A stretch of 21,312 nucleotides of DNA from a virus, in UHGV virus genome UHGV-1468037. One strand, written 5' to 3'. Both the position numbers and the translations under genes were made by a program. The notes beneath the pieces were generated by a model. It made no database searches and had not been told where the DNA came from. It was given only the letters and a program-made list of their open reading frames with translations. Positions 2,779 through 9,104 of the stretch are shown here, in pieces. Position 1 is the stretch's first letter. Each line of letters begins with the position of its first letter.

Positions 2779-3178
2779 CGTCTTTTCTCCCCGGAATTAA
2801 CTCGCGTGGATTATCGGAACGGTGATAGAGCCAGATCCCAATTCGCACAGCGACGATTGCTGACACAAATGCACCGGCAGAGAAAACAATCCCTTTCTCG
2901 AAAGAATCCTGTGTGATTGTAGGGATCAGGCTGGCTATGCCGATAAGAATTGATGCTGCTGGTTTGTAGAATAGAAGTCCGCAGAGAAAGCTAAGCATCG
3001 ACAAGAGCACGCGACGACGAATGGGATACTCTACCGCAGAGGTAACAAAAATCACCGCCCCAGCCAAAGACCCCAAAGCAACCTCAGGAGGAACTCCTGC
3101 TATCACTGCCGCCAAAGAACTCATGCTAAGCCACTGATTTAAAGTTTCACTGGTTAGTTGAGCTGACATGTTTTCCAC
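2765..3178 (-). CDS. Multi-TM membrane protein of lysis cassette (holin candidate)
   Basis: 137 aa with about 4 predicted TM segments. First gene of the lysis cluster, downstream of an AT-rich intergenic region. Confidence 0.55.
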   Translation of the reverse strand: MENMSAQLTSETLNQWLSMSSLAAVIAGVPPEVALGSLAGAVIFVTSAVEYPIRRRVLLSMLSFLCGLLFYKPAASILIGIASLIPTITQDSFEKGIVFSAGAFVSAIVAVRIGIWLYHRSDNPRELIPGRKDDGNS

Positions 3179-6654: not shown

Positions 6655-6671
6655 ATTACCTTTCGGGTAAT
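6655..6671. promoter_or_regulatory. Dyad motif copy 1 (ATTACC TTTCG GGTAAT)
   Basis: Perfect inverted half-sites TTACC/GGTAA with 5-bp spacer; one of four copies in the island; 76 bp upstream of the 85 aa gene. Confidence 0.5.
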
Positions 6672-6746: not shown

Positions 6747-7004
6747 ATGCAGCAGTATCACTATCCACTGGAAGACGGATTTACCGAAAGGATTCACACG
6801 CCGGGAGGCGTCAGGTCACTGGTGGAGGGATCGCACTTGATGAAATTACTCCGGGATCTCGATAAGGATGGATTTAATGTCGATGGCCCACTTGCCGAAC
6901 TGACTGCACTGATTAACTACGTCACCAGCTCACAGATGTCTATGCGGGATCTGCAAACACATCTCGACTATTGTGCCGAACAATTACGAAAACAAACCCG
7001 GTAA
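6747..7004 (+). CDS. Small antirepressor-like protein; standalone paralog of the C-terminal domain of the downstream Ant-like protein
   Basis: 85 aa from ATG 6747 (GGAGA RBS). The upstream part of ORF 6624..7004 is rejected because it contains the LexA box and dyad site. Aligns by eye with the Ant-like C-terminus (LM.LL..L..DG..V.G..AELT ... RD.QTH..Y). Confidence 0.65.
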   Translation: MQQYHYPLEDGFTERIHTPGGVRSLVEGSHLMKLLRDLDKDGFNVDGPLAELTALINYVTSSQMSMRDLQTHLDYCAEQLRKQTR

Positions 7005-7010
7005 ATTTAA

Positions 7011-7028
7011 AGGCCGCAAGAGCGGCCT
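7011..7028. terminator. Bidirectional terminator between convergent genes
   Basis: Stem AGGCCGC / GCGGCCT with loop AAGA, T-rich on the plus side and A-rich before. Overlaps the stop codon of the minus-strand 242 aa gene. Confidence 0.55.
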
Positions 7029-7755
7029 ATCGTTTCGCTTTGTGCTCATCCCAGCACGTTTTGCACCATGCCATTAAGCCGTCCGCATTTTGATTATTAG
7101 GGTAAAAGCTGGTTCGTTTTCTGCGGACATTACAAATTGGGCACCACTTCATATGGCGTGTATTCTTTGGGCCATCGAGACACCTTGCACACCATTTAGT
7201 CAATCCATCTGGATTTTTTGACGATTTCCTGAATTTTTCATATGGAAGGTTTATTCTGCATCGCAAGCACTGCTTGCTACCACTTGAAACTCTGTTAGCT
7301 GATTCTTCTTTTGGCAGCGATACAGAAGGTATTCTTGCTGGCTCTGATATTGCCTGAGGTGCTTTTTTAGATGACTGAGACGATATGTCATCACCAGGGA
7401 ATCTTCCATGATATGCCGGACGCGTTGACACTCCAGGTGGAATCTCAGCTGTAAACGGCTTTGGCTGAATCAGTTGCCTCTCTTTTGCTAACTCCTGCTG
7501 TTTATAATATGTCTGGATTACCGCACTATCATAAGCAGGAGGTGCGGAAATATTAGGCGCATTACCTCCAGTTTTTTGAAACTGAGTAGAGGTGTGTTCT
7601 ATCACCTGTGTACGATTAATCGTTATCTCCCCATCTTCGGTCTTTATCGTTTTGTTATGATTAACGACCGTACGATCAGAGATCTTAGTCTTGTTCTGGT
7701 TGATAACGTAAATAATCACCGCAACCACACCAACAACTATCCAGAAAACTTCCAT
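7027..7755 (-). CDS. Membrane-anchored protein with two C-terminal zinc-ribbon (CxxC-N19/20-WCxxC) motifs; function unknown
   Basis: 242 aa. N-terminal TM helix (VFWIVVGVVAVIIYVI) followed by basic residues. Low-complexity linker. Two repeats: CLRC...WCARC and CPIC...WCKTC, in a basic context. GAGGA RBS. Divergent from the ant-like gene. Confidence 0.7.
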   Translation of the reverse strand: MEVFWIVVGVVAVIIYVINQNKTKISDRTVVNHNKTIKTEDGEITINRTQVIEHTSTQFQKTGGNAPNISAPPAYDSAVIQTYYKQQELAKERQLIQPKPFTAEIPPGVSTRPAYHGRFPGDDISSQSSKKAPQAISEPARIPSVSLPKEESANRVSSGSKQCLRCRINLPYEKFRKSSKNPDGLTKWCARCLDGPKNTRHMKWCPICNVRRKRTSFYPNNQNADGLMAWCKTCWDEHKAKR

Positions 7756-7774
7756 TGCTTTTCCTCACAATAAC

Positions 7775-7791
7775 ATTACCTTAAAGGTAAT
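7775..7791. promoter_or_regulatory. Dyad motif copy 2 (ATTACC TTAAA GGTAAT)
   Basis: Perfect 17-bp palindrome in the 5' UTR of the 242 aa gene, about 20 nt from its start codon, and at the far end of the ant-like leader. Confidence 0.5.
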
Positions 7792-7867
7792 ATCTTGCTT
7801 TCAGGTGATCAAGCGTTAAACGCAATCAACCAAATACGGTTGATTTTAATGTTTCTTCGCGCTTATC

Positions 7868-7884
7868 ATTACCTTTACGGTAAA
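7868..7884. promoter_or_regulatory. Dyad motif copy 3 (ATTACC TTTAC GGTAAA)
   Basis: Same TTACC-N5-GGTAA architecture, in the divergent intergenic region between the 242 aa gene and the ant-like gene. Confidence 0.45.
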
Positions 7885-7918
7885 TTTACATTGCACTCCT
7901 CTTGTGCCATAGTAATCG

Positions 7919-8049
7919 GGCACTGGCAAAATCCAGTGCCGGGATTGGCGTCCCGGATTACTACAGAGGCACATATGCCGCATAAGCGGTTTTTTTATGT
8001 GTAAAGCGCACCTATTCTATGGTGGGCTGTGTGGGGGCACCGAAAGGTG
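7919..8049 (+). promoter_or_regulatory. Structured leader upstream of ant-like gene (multiple hairpins including a terminator-like hairpin plus T7 run)
   Basis: Hairpins GGCACTGG/CCAGTGCC (7919-7940) and CCGGGA/TCCCGG (7939-7956) overlap and are mutually exclusive. CCGC-ATAA-GCGG followed by TTTTTTT (7978-7996). GCACC-GAAA-GGTGC (8037-8049). Confidence 0.4.
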
Positions 8050-8149
8050 CGCCGGGTCCTTTGTAGCCGGTTACGCCAACCCTGCACAGTTCACCACCAA
8101 CCGATTGGCGTCGGTAGTGGTGATTAACCTAACTACAAAGGTGATCACT

Positions 8150-8836
8150 ATGACTGCTAACGTAACCCCATCTGTTTTTCATTTTGAATCAGAAGCAACC
8201 ATTCGAGCCATTGTTATTGATGGAAATCCTTGGTTTGTTGCCAAAGACGTTATTAAAGCTCTTCAACTGACAAACCCCACTATGTCAATAAAATCTCTTG
8301 ATGATGATGAAAGGGCTAAATTTAACTTAGGCCGTCAAGGCGAAACCAATATTATCAACGAGTCAGGCCTCTACACACTGATCCTCCGCTGCCGCGACGC
8401 AGTGACACCAGGCACTATCCCCTACCGCTTTCGCAAATGGGTTACAGGTGAGGTTCTTCCTCAGATCCGCCGCACCGGAAGCTACATTAAAAACTCGCTC
8501 CCGCAGGAAGAGCGCATAAAGATGGTTGCCGACCAGGTAGCCAACGCCACGGCGTCAGCAGTAATGCAGGCGATGAAGATAGAGAACAAAACCTACAGTG
8601 CCCCACTGAAGCCAGGCTACCGCAGTCTGATTCATTCGCCGTCGGGTGTTCTCGGCCTGACGGAGAACTCATTGCTGATGAATCTGCTGAATCAGTTGCA
8701 GGACGACGGGCATGATGTATCGGGCGCGGCGGCGGAACTGACCACCATGTTCTGCTACATCGTCGGTGTGAGCAAATGCCTGCGTGATATCCAGACGCAC
8801 GCGGAGTACATCAACGACAAGGCAGGGTTCTTCTGA
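8150..8836 (+). CDS. Antirepressor-like protein with N-terminal BRO-N domain and C-terminal antirepressor-type domain
   Basis: 228 aa from ATG 8150 (AAGG 8 nt upstream). N-terminus matches the BRO-N pattern (IDGNPWFVAKDV...INESGLYTLIL...FRKWVTGEVLPQIRRTGSY). The longer ORF from 7997 would include the hairpin leader and lacks an RBS. Confidence 0.75.
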   Translation: MTANVTPSVFHFESEATIRAIVIDGNPWFVAKDVIKALQLTNPTMSIKSLDDDERAKFNLGRQGETNIINESGLYTLILRCRDAVTPGTIPYRFRKWVTGEVLPQIRRTGSYIKNSLPQEERIKMVADQVANATASAVMQAMKIENKTYSAPLKPGYRSLIHSPSGVLGLTENSLLMNLLNQLQDDGHDVSGAAAELTTMFCYIVGVSKCLRDIQTHAEYINDKAGFF

Positions 8837-8845
8837 CAGAACGGC

Positions 8846-8868
8846 GGCACAGGGATGTGCCTTTAAAT
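8846..8868 (+). terminator. Weak terminator-like hairpin after ant-like gene
   Basis: GGCACA-GGGA-TGTGCC followed by TTTAAATAATT. The T-run is short, so termination is probably partial. Confidence 0.3.
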
Positions 8869-8908
8869 AATTCTGTACAGATTGCAGACTGTGGGTGAAT
8901 AGCGTACT

Positions 8909-8925
8909 ATTACCTTAAAGGTAAA
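8909..8925. promoter_or_regulatory. Dyad motif copy 4 (ATTACC TTAAA GGTAAA)
   Basis: Core identical to copy 2. Abuts the Shine-Dalgarno AAGGAGG of the 55 aa gene. Confidence 0.5.
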
Positions 8926-8936
8926 GGAGGCGCGAT

Positions 8937-9104
8937 ATGACAGCGTTGAAAAATCGTACTCAGCACAATGAACAAGCCAAGCAATGCTGGGATGTCATTG
9001 GAAAAGTTATGCTTGGCCGCGCAAGCAAAGAGCGCGACAAGGATATGGTTTACCAGACAGGAACATCTTTCAGCGACTTCAAGGCGGCATTTCGCTCCAA
9101 ATAG
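8937..9104 (+). CDS. Small basic protein (55 aa), unknown function
   Basis: Not in the ORF track (<60 aa). ATG 8937 is preceded by a consensus SD AAGGAGG with 6-nt spacing. Translated by hand: MTALKNRTQHNEQAKQCWDVIGKVMLGRASKERDKDMVYQTGTSFSDFKAAFRSK. TAG stop at 9102-9104. Confidence 0.55.
   Translation: MTALKNRTQHNEQAKQCWDVIGKVMLGRASKERDKDMVYQTGTSFSDFKAAFRSK

Follow-up and report, generated by a model that had tools for sequence, protein, structure and literature searches.

Anatomy of the leader

The window analysed here, the whole stretch of 21,312 nucleotides of UHGV virus genome UHGV-1468037, is an epsilon15/phiV10-like E. coli prophage, that is, a podovirus-type Uetakevirus. Within it, a 394-bp intergenic leader (7756-8149) separates a divergent 242-aa ORF from the ATG of ant at 8150, as outlined in the original prediction, which had also recognized an antirepressor-like gene at this position; the encoded protein matches Pfam Bro-N (5e-20) and phrog_130, 'anti-repressor Ant' (5e-56). 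An Rfam scan reveals two full-length RNA genes in the leader, isrK and the C4 antisense RNA, both on the plus strand, which bears out the earlier suggestion that a small regulatory RNA controls the antirepressor. The order of elements is promoter, IsrK (with sites a1 and b1), terminator, C4 (with a' and b'), a2, b2 on the Shine-Dalgarno sequence, and the BRO-N ATG at 8150:

7027-7755, minus strand: divergent 242-aa ORF, ATG at 7755
7776-7790, no strand assigned: operator-like dyad TTACCTTAAAGGTAA, exact TTACC-N5-GGTAA, 21-35 nt upstream of the ATG of the 242-aa ORF
7869-7883, no strand assigned: operator-like dyad TTACCTTTACGGTAA, TTACC-N5-GGTAA, abutting the -35 element of the putative IsrK promoter
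7885-7913, plus strand: predicted sigma-70 promoter PisrK, -35 TTTACA (7885-7890), 17-nt spacer with TG, -10 CATAGT (7908-7913)
7920-7996, plus strand: IsrK sRNA, equivalent of the c4-a1b1 element; Rfam RF01394, 76.8 bits against a threshold of 50, model positions 1-77
7945-7951, plus strand: a1 site TTGGCGT, the complement of C4 a', located in the hairpin 2 loop of IsrK
7961-7969, plus strand: b1 site CTACAGAGG, able to form 9 bp, one of them G-U, with the b' loop of C4
8015-8101, plus strand: C4 antisense RNA; Rfam RF01695, 79.5 bits against a threshold of 45, model positions 1-87, E 2e-14
8058-8066, plus strand: b' CCTTTGTAG, in the P3 loop, the specificity loop of C4
8073-8079, plus strand: a' ACGCCAA, in the single-stranded junction of C4
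8105-8111, plus strand: a2 site TTGGCGT, 4 nt past the end of the C4 model, exposed in the loop of the short hairpin 8100-8115
8117-8123, plus strand: conserved GUGGUGA (GGUGGUGA in most relatives), with two pairing options
8133-8141, plus strand: b2 site CTACAAAGG, which overlaps AAGGTG (8138-8143), the Shine-Dalgarno sequence of ant, and lies 8 nt before the ATG at 8150
8150-8836, plus strand: ant, encoding a 228-aa BRO-N antirepressor

A permissive Rfam scan of 7700-9000 yielded nothing credible beyond matches to the isrK and C4 families; lysM-TM7 (19.7 bits versus 61.5) and RsmV (14.3 bits versus 100) were dismissed as noise. Since a tRNA/tmRNA scan of the window found none, C4, though tRNA-like, is not a tRNA gene.

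The predicted promoter PisrK has 9/12 consensus matches plus the TG, a degree of matching as frequent as chance in this region. Its geometry agrees with that of the Gifsy-1 isrK promoter in aligned upstream sequences (TTGACA-17-TATATT, 6 nt, +1). Position 1 of the Rfam isrK model maps to 7920, and we infer that transcription starts at G7920; the promoter scan found no other plus-strand promoter-like site between 7914 and 8150. The two dyads, which had already been noticed, belong to a larger set: the window holds four exact copies of TTACC-N5-GGTAA and one with a single mismatch, against 0.44 expected, and 0/100 shuffles reach five. Upstream of the IsrK start, at a distance of 34-37 nt, the same dyad occurs in phiV10, Tyrion, HEMP4 and the E. 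coli 118UI prophage, whose leader is 99.7% identical to the one studied here; it is absent from 13/13 non-Uetakevirus loci. In the aligned upstream sequences its arms are kept and the inner 5 nt vary. By analogy with the P1 C1 operator Oc4/Op51, the dyad at 7869-7883 would add repressor control over the whole isrK-C4-ant unit.

The GC-rich hairpins that had been pointed out in the leader fold better than shuffled sequence in IsrK (7920-7996, z = -2.50), in C4 (8015-8101, z = -3.62) and at 8099-8160 (z = -3.56), all on the plus strand. IsrK consists of hairpin 1 (7920-7939), hairpin 2 (7940-7955), a single-stranded stretch and an intrinsic terminator, in which a hairpin at 7977-7990 is followed by seven T residues at 7990-7996. 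This T-run hairpin, correctly singled out before, is a genuine sRNA terminator, and reaching ant needs its read-through. A match to the c4-a1b1 model (Rfam RF03163) at 7907-7959 scores 45.1 bits (E 7e-10), just below the threshold of 46.7, which the P1, Gifsy-1, phi296 and JLK-2012 homologues do reach.

The minimum free energy (MFE) fold of C4 equals its consensus fold, at -45.2 kcal/mol. Stem P1 (8020-8036/8080-8096) has 17 bp, hairpin P2 (8037-8050) carries a GAAA tetraloop, P3 (8051-8071) has an 11-nt loop at 8056-8066, and an 8-nt single-stranded junction occupies 8072-8079. From homology with the annotated ends of the 77-nt P1 c4, mature C4 is predicted at about 8021-8098. This 87-nt three-stem fold, the largest structure of the leader, had gone unremarked, as had the repeats that are complementary to its junction and loop: TTGGCGT at 7945-7951 and 8105-8111, and CTACAGAGG/CTACAAAGG at 7961-7969/8133-8141.

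The duplex of b1 with b' has an energy of -12.7 kcal/mol; b' and b2 pair over 9 bp (-12.0 kcal/mol), and a' and a2 over 7 bp. The conserved segment at 8117-8123 has two possible partners, 8091-8097 in the 3' strand of stem P1 of C4 and 8142-8151, the latter giving a local hairpin that presents b2.

Covariation of the pairing sites among phages

For this prophage we computed family identity, anatomy, conservation, three-way covariation and the position of b2 on the ribosome-binding site. In all 16 of the 16 other phage loci, P1 and Gifsy-1 among them, isrK (c4-a1b1 in P1) is followed about 20-40 nt on by C4. The gene 3' of the tandem is an Ant/BRO/Rha-type regulator wherever it is annotated, with two of these 16 records unannotated at the downstream gene and two giving only a hypothetical protein. 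The three-stem C4 fold is common to 17/17 homologues.

The specificity segments vary strongly on this constant scaffold. The 17 phages have 7 a-variants and 14 distinct b' loops; all a-variants are compensated, with 0/500 shuffles reaching the observed score, and most b' loops have a matching b1 and b2. Because a longest-run specificity statistic is weak at the a sites with G-U pairs allowed, about 25% of non-cognate combinations reaching the cognate median, column-wise covariation was used there. Between a1 and a', compensatory double changes occur in 5/7 pairs and about 95% of cells are paired, which 0/500 shuffles match when the two-helix structure is counted; the same figures hold for a' and a2 (5/7 pairs, about 95% of cells, 0/500 shuffles). 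Both signals collapse once the partner is slid by 1-3 columns. At the b sites, which MAFFT left out of register, covariation comes from unaligned best-run searches rather than pair counts: complementary runs average 8.6-9.4 nt in cognate and about 6 nt in non-cognate combinations. Covariation also links the segment at 8117-8123 to the 3' strand of C4, where 95.6% of cells are paired and three pairs are changed on both sides. The pairing rules are not absolute, because SfV a2 carries a mismatch, b2 of PhiR26_1 is placed immediately 3' of the ATG, and b1 is weak (6-7 nt) in Gifsy-1 and Nil2. The original prediction had proposed folding the leader in silico and testing for covariation in homologous prophages; the structures hold, and a1, a' and a2 covary across the 17 phages.

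Relatives of the element and a model for its action

In phage P1, the c4 RNA is excised by RNase P from the ant precursor to about 77 nt and represses Ant synthesis. The c4 antisense RNA of P1/P7 immI was reportedly the subject of work by Citron and Schuster in 1990. The P1 record (NC_005856) annotates an operator, promoters, a1, b1, c4, a2, b2, icd and ant, and order and spacing from the operator and promoter through a1, b1, C4, a2 and b2 to the antirepressor are the same in the window. In both, a2 follows C4 by 4 nt and b2 precedes a start codon by 8-10 nt, and both have the three-stem C4 fold (68.8 bits in P1, 79.5 here). The a and b sequences of P1 differ from those here, with compensation at all three places. 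There are other differences: the P1 a1/b1 segment matches c4-a1b1 and not isrK, Ant of P1 and the BRO-N protein here are different proteins, the operator is a C1 site in P1 and a TTACC-N5-GGTAA dyad here, and P1 is a plasmid prophage whereas the window is a Uetakevirus prophage. In P1, moreover, the annotated b2 lies 10 nt before the ATG of icd, an ORF that intervenes ahead of ant and is coupled to it in translation, whereas here b2 lies on ant's own Shine-Dalgarno sequence and no icd-type ORF separates the two. The element would thus work like immI, yet it is not an icd-containing immI operon.

The isrK-orf45(STnc1160)-anrP-isrJ locus of Salmonella prophage Gifsy-1 (Hershko-Shalev et al. 2016, PMC4825925) contains the same isrK-C4 tandem (L006, 34316-34240 and 34214-34131). 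It shares with the window the promoter geometry, a long IsrK:C4 helix and a downstream antirepressor; both have the sRNA terminator, whose read-through was shown in Gifsy-1 and is assumed here by analogy. The Gifsy-1 a1 and a' are identical to those here (TTGGCGT and ACGCCAA), whereas its b' is CGGTGAT instead of CCTTTGTAG. In Gifsy-1 an ORF of 45 codons, overlapping C4, reaches its end on the ATG of anrP; its counterpart here has 15 codons and ends in the b' loop. Gifsy-1 also has isrJ, while the window contains neither an isrJ match nor an adjacent Q antiterminator. Because the window lacks both the P1 icd and a full orf45, coupling as published for those systems cannot apply here in unaltered form.

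In the APSE phages, which infect Hamiltonella defensa (Rouil et al. 2020, PMC7313666; LR794149), isrK and C4 are annotated next to each other, directly upstream of a BRO-N gene; the paper lists both RNAs without linking them. The APSE annotation marks a' and b', and the sites are covariant as they are here. These phages are Sendosyvirus with another host, their a' (ATGCGAA) and b' (CCTGTTTAG) are unlike those of the window, and they lack the TTACC-N5-GGTAA operator. The CI RNA of satellite phage P4 is likewise a processed small RNA between complementary sites (seqA/seqC) on the same transcript, but it acts by premature transcription termination of replication genes and not by masking an antirepressor ribosome-binding site. 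IsrK has been called a structural homologue of SeqA (PMC4825925).

We consider it highly probable that the leader is an RNA immunity module of the P1 immI type in which C4 blocks ant and IsrK relieves the block. The evidence for C4 repression, IsrK activation, read-through and processing comes from experiments in P1 and Gifsy-1; transferred to this prophage, the steps would be as follows. A single promoter (-35 at 7885-7890, -10 at 7908-7913), with the operator dyad at 7869-7883 abutting its -35 element, would start an RNA at about 7920, and the weak terminator at 7977-7996 would stop most transcripts to give a 77-nt IsrK. Read-through RNA would span C4 (8015-8101) into ant, and RNase P would probably cut C4 out to about 78 nt, as in P1. 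Pairing of b' (8058-8066) with b2 on the Shine-Dalgarno sequence and of a' (8073-8079) with a2 would then block ribosome entry at ant. The a1 and b1 segments of IsrK, being copies of the a2 and b2 target sites, may compete for a' and b', both in cis, on read-through transcripts, and in trans, as the 77-nt sRNA; relief of the block would allow the antirepressor to be made and lead to prophage derepression. The hypervariable b' loop together with the a' junction would give phage-specific immunity (hetero-immunity).

Published data bear on several of these steps. In Gifsy-1, the isrK promoter drives anrP via read-through, the long transcript is silent in translation, IsrK supplied in trans raises translation 139-fold, and STnc1160 is an approximately 80-nt processed RNA downstream of IsrK (PMC4825925). 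The pairing of G28/G31 with C162/C159 in that system corresponds to a1-a' here: a1 is homologous to the site of IsrK G28/G31, and mutating G28/G31 abolishes trans-activation (PMC4825925). Competition by a1/b1 was already put forward as a hypothesis in the supplement of PMC2864571. The decoy step is, however, not fully consistent with the Gifsy-1 data. The cis a1 mutations G28A and G31A raise basal translation instead of lowering it, over-expression of STnc1160 failed to counteract IsrK, and the authors explain activation by a structure switch in cis plus orf45 translation, not by titration of free C4 (PMC4825925). By analogy with P1 and Gifsy-1, IsrK and C4 very probably switch antirepressor translation on and off in this prophage as well.

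Other readings of the leader and wider implications

The Gifsy-1 explanation amounts to a purely cis-acting bistable leader with upstream-ORF coupling, in which a free C4 repressor plays no part: 'structure A' would lock the read-through RNA, short IsrK would open it, and ribosomes would run through the small ORF into ant. Genetics and native gels support structures A and B as well as a requirement of anrP for orf45 to be translated (PMC4825925). The MFE fold of the full leader in the window (-106.0 kcal/mol, versus -95.1 kcal/mol for the modular fold) likewise contains a 23-bp helix between IsrK 7941-7969 and C4 8058-8082, the counterpart of 'structure A', and the AUG in the C4 5' strand is kept in 17/17 sequences. 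The ORF starting from this AUG, at 8019 in the window, nevertheless varies in length across the 17 phages (8 to more than 68 codons), and here it has only 15 codons, with its TAG stop (8064-8066) inside the b' loop; since it ends 84 nt before the ant ATG, upstream-ORF coupling is impossible in the window. An orf45-like peptide was rejected, its frame not being conserved among the 17 phages. The purely cis reading also leaves unexplained both the covariation of a2/b2 with a'/b' and the location of b2 on the Shine-Dalgarno sequence. Furthermore, Gifsy-1 double mutants in which a1-a' is restored but a'-a2 is broken are still derepressed (224-327 units versus 4; PMC4825925), as expected if a'-a2 pairing matters. 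We regard this reading as unlikely.

The earlier proposal of an attenuator or antitermination switch, in which mutually exclusive hairpins set the 7977-7996 terminator according to a ligand, a protein or the position of the ribosome, has in its favor that the terminator does lie within the leader and that ant requires read-through; STnc1160 has even been speculated to modulate IsrK termination (PMC4825925). The proposal was built on hairpins at 7919-7940 and 7939-7956, which overlap at the base by just one or two nucleotides and co-exist: 7920-7939 and 7940-7955 stand side by side as hairpins 1 and 2 of IsrK in the MFE fold and in the Rfam isrK consensus. The idea of alternative folding survives in the 23-bp IsrK:C4 helix, a different element from the pair originally named. 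The terminator hairpin is kept in both the modular and the A-type fold, no riboswitch or leader family in Rfam matches even at E<=5, and no conserved anti-terminator pairing was seen across the 17 aligned sequences, all of which make such a switch very unlikely. The comparison with P22 immI fares worse still. In P22, sar is a cis-antisense RNA that is made from the opposite strand and limits antirepressor synthesis, alongside Mnt and Arc. P22 and the present system each use a small RNA on an antirepressor, and a minus-strand, sar-type sRNA over the ant ribosome-binding site would complete the parallel. Here, however, both RNAs are on the ant strand, with no homology or structural match to sar: Rfam gives no minus-strand match at threshold, nor one to sar at E<=5. 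Minus-strand promoter-like sites are absent from 7756-8200, C4 read on that strand is no more stable than shuffled sequence (z = -0.74 only), and conserved pairings that involve G-U would become A-C mismatches on that strand. The probability of this reading is close to nil, and the correct relatives are P1/P7 immI and Gifsy-1 isrK-STnc1160-anrP, not P22.

Equally improbable is that the leader is coding, with an N-terminally extended antirepressor of 279 aa read in frame from ATG 7997 (ORF 7997-8836). The frame is indeed open for 51 codons upstream of 8150, and CDSs are annotated over the homologous region in several phage records (SfV orf37, Nil2 ORF57, phi296). ATG 7997, however, directly follows the T-run without a good Shine-Dalgarno sequence, the homologous frame of phiV10, likewise opening at an ATG 3' of the T-run, meets a stop codon in the loop of C4, and the other candidate frame, that from the conserved C4 AUG, has the variable length given above. 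Conservation tracks RNA pairing and not codons. The RefSeq start in the 99.7% identical prophage is ATG 8150, and within the 228-aa form Pfam Bro-N matches from residue 18 onward.

Returning to the immI-type module, both of its RNAs are already catalogued, and the leader is a real but ordinary element of a known kind; the result opens no new question. The comparative set, with its 7 a-variants and 14 b-variants, supports the decades-old a1/b1 decoy hypothesis and ties it to the literature on IsrK. We are evenly divided on whether Gifsy-1 IsrK/orf45 and P1 c4/a1b1 are one portable cassette, composed of a decoy (IsrK), an antisense RNA (C4) and a target (a2/b2). If they are, orf45/STnc1160 may be the C4 RNA, with IsrK activating by titration of C4, and the cassette may have spread over Uetakevirus, lambdoid Stx phages, SfV, P1, APSE and Moraxella Mcat4. 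Its two specificity segments may diversify in lock-step at three places to create many RNA-based immunity groups, and the epsilon15-like lineage may be a simplified form that has no upstream-ORF coupling and is placed under a lineage-specific operator. An explicit unification of IsrK with c4 that includes three-way covariation may be unpublished, as the open-access papers examined treat the two separately; the Gifsy-1 study never mentions P1 c4 RNA (PMC4825925). Such a unification is already implied by the 1990 decoy hypothesis and by the overlapping Rfam models.

RefSeq/GenBank records of this prophage type annotate no RNA genes here, and in some relatives' records spurious CDSs cover both RNAs. 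Marking isrK and C4 mends the annotation and identifies ant, at 8150, as an antirepressor probably under tight RNA control. Of 5426 complete E. coli genomes, 956 contain the leader or parts of it, so prophage induction, and cross-immunity among prophages that share a host, probably commonly depend on this module.

RNA families and pairing sites in the ant leader

The window is part of an epsilon15/phiV10-like (Uetakevirus) E. coli prophage whose nearest phage record is TL-2011b (95%), with large virion genes, including the tailspike gene, on its flanks. Several complete E. coli chromosomes carry the leader at 99.7% identity; of 5426 complete genomes of the species, 956 contain matches to parts of it. 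The 228-aa protein that starts at ATG 8150 has a Bro-N domain (Pfam, E 5e-20) and, among PHROGs, matches "anti-repressor Ant" best (5e-56). Searching the whole window against Rfam gave exactly two matches above curated thresholds, isrK and the C4 antisense RNA, both full length and on the + strand; neither is annotated in RefSeq/GenBank for this prophage type. A permissive scan added c4-a1b1 (RF03163, "a1, b1 targets of C4 antisense RNA") at 7907–7959, overlapping IsrK hairpins 1 and 2 and scoring 45.1 bits against a threshold of 46.7 (E = 7e-10). Duplexes at the pairing sites have energies of −10 to −13 kcal/mol.

Features of the leader and its neighbour
7027–7755, − strand: divergent 242-aa ORF
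7756–8149: leader, 394-bp spacer between the 242-aa ORF and ATG 8150
7920–7996, + strand: isrK (RF01394), 76.8 bits, threshold 50
7945–7951, + strand: a1, TTGGCGT, loop of IsrK hairpin 2, complement of a'
7961–7969, + strand: b1, CTACAGAGG, in IsrK, complement of b' with one G-U pair
8015–8101, + strand: C4 antisense RNA (RF01695), 79.5 bits, threshold 45
8020–8036 with 8080–8096, + strand: stem P1 of the 87-nt C4 fold
8037–8050, + strand: P2 of the same fold, GAAA tetraloop
8051–8071, + strand: P3 of the same fold, 11-nt loop
8058–8066, + strand: b', CCTTTGTAG, P3 loop
8072–8079, + strand: single-stranded junction of the C4 fold, 8 nt
8073–8079, + strand: a', ACGCCAA, C4 junction
8105–8111, + strand: a2, TTGGCGT, loop capping a small hairpin, 4 nt 3' of C4, complement of a'
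8133–8141, + strand: b2, CTACAAAGG, perfect complement of b', overlapping the Shine-Dalgarno AAGGTG, 8 nt 5' of the ATG

The GC-rich hairpins noted in the original prediction do fold more stably on the + strand than shuffled sequence does, with z = −2.5 (7920–7996), −3.6 (8015–8101) and −3.6 (8099–8160). The hairpin followed by a T run is also present, as a short GC hairpin at 7977–7990 with T7 at 7990–7996, and the Rfam isrK match identifies it as the IsrK terminator. By the same match, the two hairpins thought to overlap and exclude each other (7919–7940 and 7939–7956) are IsrK hairpins 1 and 2; they are adjacent, and both are present in the minimum free energy (MFE) fold and in the Rfam consensus. 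The 87-nt C4 fold had not been singled out.

The leader is a genuine feature of a familiar type. Rfam has curated families for both RNAs; APSE phage records already annotate isrK and C4 beside a BRO-N gene, and PMC7313666 describes this arrangement. The regulatory logic has been in print since 1990 for P1 and since 2016 for Gifsy-1 (PMC4825925). What is mildly new is only the explicit connection drawn between these two systems, in which IsrK would be the a1/b1 element and STnc1160/orf45' would be C4; the open-access papers checked treat IsrK and c4 systems separately.

Covariation between C4 and its targets

For comparison we retrieved 16 more phage loci, either matching the leader at 69–98% identity or serving as reference systems: phiV10, Tyrion, HEMP4, APSE-2, APSE-7, phi296, Nil2, an Stx2c phage, Stx2_14040, JLK-2012, SfV, 2H10, PhiR26_1, Moraxella Mcat4, Gifsy-1 and P1. 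At every one, Rfam finds isrK (c4-a1b1 in P1) followed by C4 about 20–40 nt on. Where annotated, the next gene encodes a regulator of the Ant, BRO-N or Rha type; this stretch is unannotated in two records, and two others read only "hypothetical protein".

The C4 fold is common to all 17 sequences. Seven sequence variants of a' occur, each mirrored at a1 and a2, and in a MAFFT alignment both sides change in 5 of 7 base pairs, for a1-a' as for a'-a2. About 95% of cells are paired in both cases, none of 500 shuffles reaches the observed covariation, and sliding the partner by 1–3 columns lowers pairing to 18–62%. The P3 loop has 14 variants among the 17 loci; complementary runs between cognate b sites, at conserved positions, have a mean length of 8.6 nt for the IsrK sites and 9.4 nt for those by the start codon, compared with about 6 nt when loops and sites are non-cognate. 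Leader folding and a search for covariation in homologues, both proposed in the original prediction, yielded stable folds and a three-way covariation across 17 loci. This covariation is strong comparative evidence for + strand pairing of C4 with its sites in IsrK and with those at the ribosome-binding site alike; across lineages, it also supports equating IsrK with the a1/b1 element and STnc1160/orf45' with C4.

In PhiR26_1 (locus L009, ~1416–1423), b2 CTACTCAA lies off the Shine-Dalgarno, at codons 2–4 of a Rha-family gene; this target is shifted, yet inside the ribosome footprint. Protein-coding genes are annotated straight over isrK and C4 in SfV (L005, 1125–1961; orf37, "immunity region"), Nil2 (L012, 1263–1436), phi296 (L004, 1532–1699) and the further phage locus L016 (869–1702); such CDSs in public phage records are probably mis-annotations. 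Nil2 also carries sRNA-Xcc1 (RF02221, 79.3 bits) between antA and antB (L012, 2325–2408), a family also reported from some APSE phages (PMC7313666).

Alternative folds and proposed control of ant

The MFE of the full leader (7920–8170) is −106.0 kcal/mol, in a fold with a 23-bp helix between IsrK 7941–7969 and C4 8058–8082 (a1:a', b1:b' and flanks); folding IsrK, C4 and the downstream hairpins separately gives −95.1 kcal/mol. The same calculation returns this A-type fold, IsrK paired to C4, in 8 of the 17 phages, Gifsy-1 included. There, "structure A", with its ~30-nt helix b-I, was experimentally demonstrated (PMC4825925), and the window's helix is its counterpart. By these models the leader is bistable, though the pair of hairpins named in the original prediction is not what makes it so. 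The conserved GGUGGUGA after a2 (8117–8123) duplicates the 5' strand of C4 stem P1. Its pairing with the 3' strand at 8091–8097 is possible (alignment A1, columns 219–226 with 191–198), and the two co-vary, with compensated changes in JLK-2012, Mcat4 and P1. In the window it may instead pair with 8142–8151, forming a hairpin with b2 in its loop. The GGUGGUGA pairing probably belongs to the alternative fold and to the structure A/B switch.

The P1 GenBank record lists these elements too, in identical order and at almost identical spacing: C1 operator Oc4, promoters, a1, b1, the 77-nt c4 RNA, a2 (4 nt after c4), b2 (10 nt 5' of the icd ATG), icd and ant. As described in that record and the supplement of PMC2864571, a' and b' of c4 pair with a2 and b2 and block translation at the ribosome-binding site; competition for c4 by the upstream a1/b1 copies is put forward in the supplement as a proposal. 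In Gifsy-1, transcription from the isrK promoter passes the IsrK terminator to reach the antirepressor gene. The resulting long RNA is translationally silent, and IsrK in trans raises translation 139-fold (PMC4825925). The critical Gifsy-1 pairs G28/G31 with C162/C159 correspond to a1-a' in the window, and the ~80-nt processed RNA STnc1160 (PMC4825925) comes from a stretch that is C4 by Rfam. By analogy, C4, probably processed to ~8021–8098, would mask the ant Shine-Dalgarno through b'-b2, helped by a'-a2, and IsrK, in cis and as an abundant short RNA, would sequester a' and b' and so permit Ant synthesis.

Unlike P1, the window has no icd-type ORF, and its orf45-type frame from the conserved AUG 8019 spans 15 codons, with its stop inside the b' loop (8 to >68 codons among relatives); translational coupling therefore cannot operate here. 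On the simplest reading, the ant ribosome-binding site would be occluded directly. Both the truncated ORF and the covariation of a2 and b2 speak against a structure switch acting in cis only and coupled to an upstream ORF. Of the possibilities originally raised, an attenuator was rejected, there being no competing anti-terminator and the terminator being kept in both folds, as was a P22 sar-type antisense RNA, given the absence of a minus-strand signal and the strand-specific G-U pairs. An N-terminally extended Ant from ATG 7997 was discarded because the frame is not conserved. Within the occlusion reading, the IsrK decoy step is on weaker ground than the identification of the parts, since basal expression in Gifsy-1 goes up, not down, when a1 is mutated in cis, and over-expressed STnc1160 does not antagonize IsrK (PMC4825925).

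Predicted promoter and dyad repeats

A sigma-70-like site at 7885–7913 (TTTACA, 17 nt with TG, CATAGT) has a predicted start at ~7920, position 1 of the isrK model, and shares its geometry with the Gifsy-1 isrK promoter. Both dyads reported in the original prediction, at 7776–7790 and 7869–7883, were recovered as TTACC-N5-GGTAA, a pattern with five occurrences in the window where 0.44 would be expected.

TTACC-N5-GGTAA dyads
6656–6670, 7776–7790, 7869–7883 and 8910–8924: exact, each just 5' of a small gene or promoter
3031–3045: one mismatch

The dyad at 7869–7883 adjoins the −35 element. It lies 34–37 nt 5' of IsrK in phiV10, Tyrion, HEMP4 and a near-identical 118UI prophage, with varying inner bases; it was not found at 13 loci of other lineages, its position being kept in Uetakevirus relatives only. 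With C1 at Op51 of P1 as a model, we infer a lineage-specific operator through which a putative repressor would control the isrK-C4-ant unit. The copies together are probably the operator set of such a phage repressor, covering several accessory genes besides the ant unit. Between the leader dyads, 7824–7845 holds an AT-rich 8-bp inverted repeat, AATCAACC-N6-GGTTGATT, followed by TTAATGTTT; terminator-like in our scan, it may be a candidate protein-binding site or weak terminator.

The divergent 242-aa protein belongs to phrog_6762, a family with no assigned function. Its N-terminus is hydrophobic, and its Cys-rich C-terminal part weakly matches endonuclease VII, HNH and Lar-like families, with Pfam Stc1 sub-threshold. 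An 85-aa ORF at 6747–7004 (+ strand), homologous to epsilon15 gp19, is 41% identical to aa 147–224 of the BRO-N antirepressor, its C-terminal domain (BLASTP 3e-16), and the two share phrog_450 and phrog_15539. This stand-alone Ant C-domain copy has a dyad of its own upstream and could modulate Ant or Ant's target.
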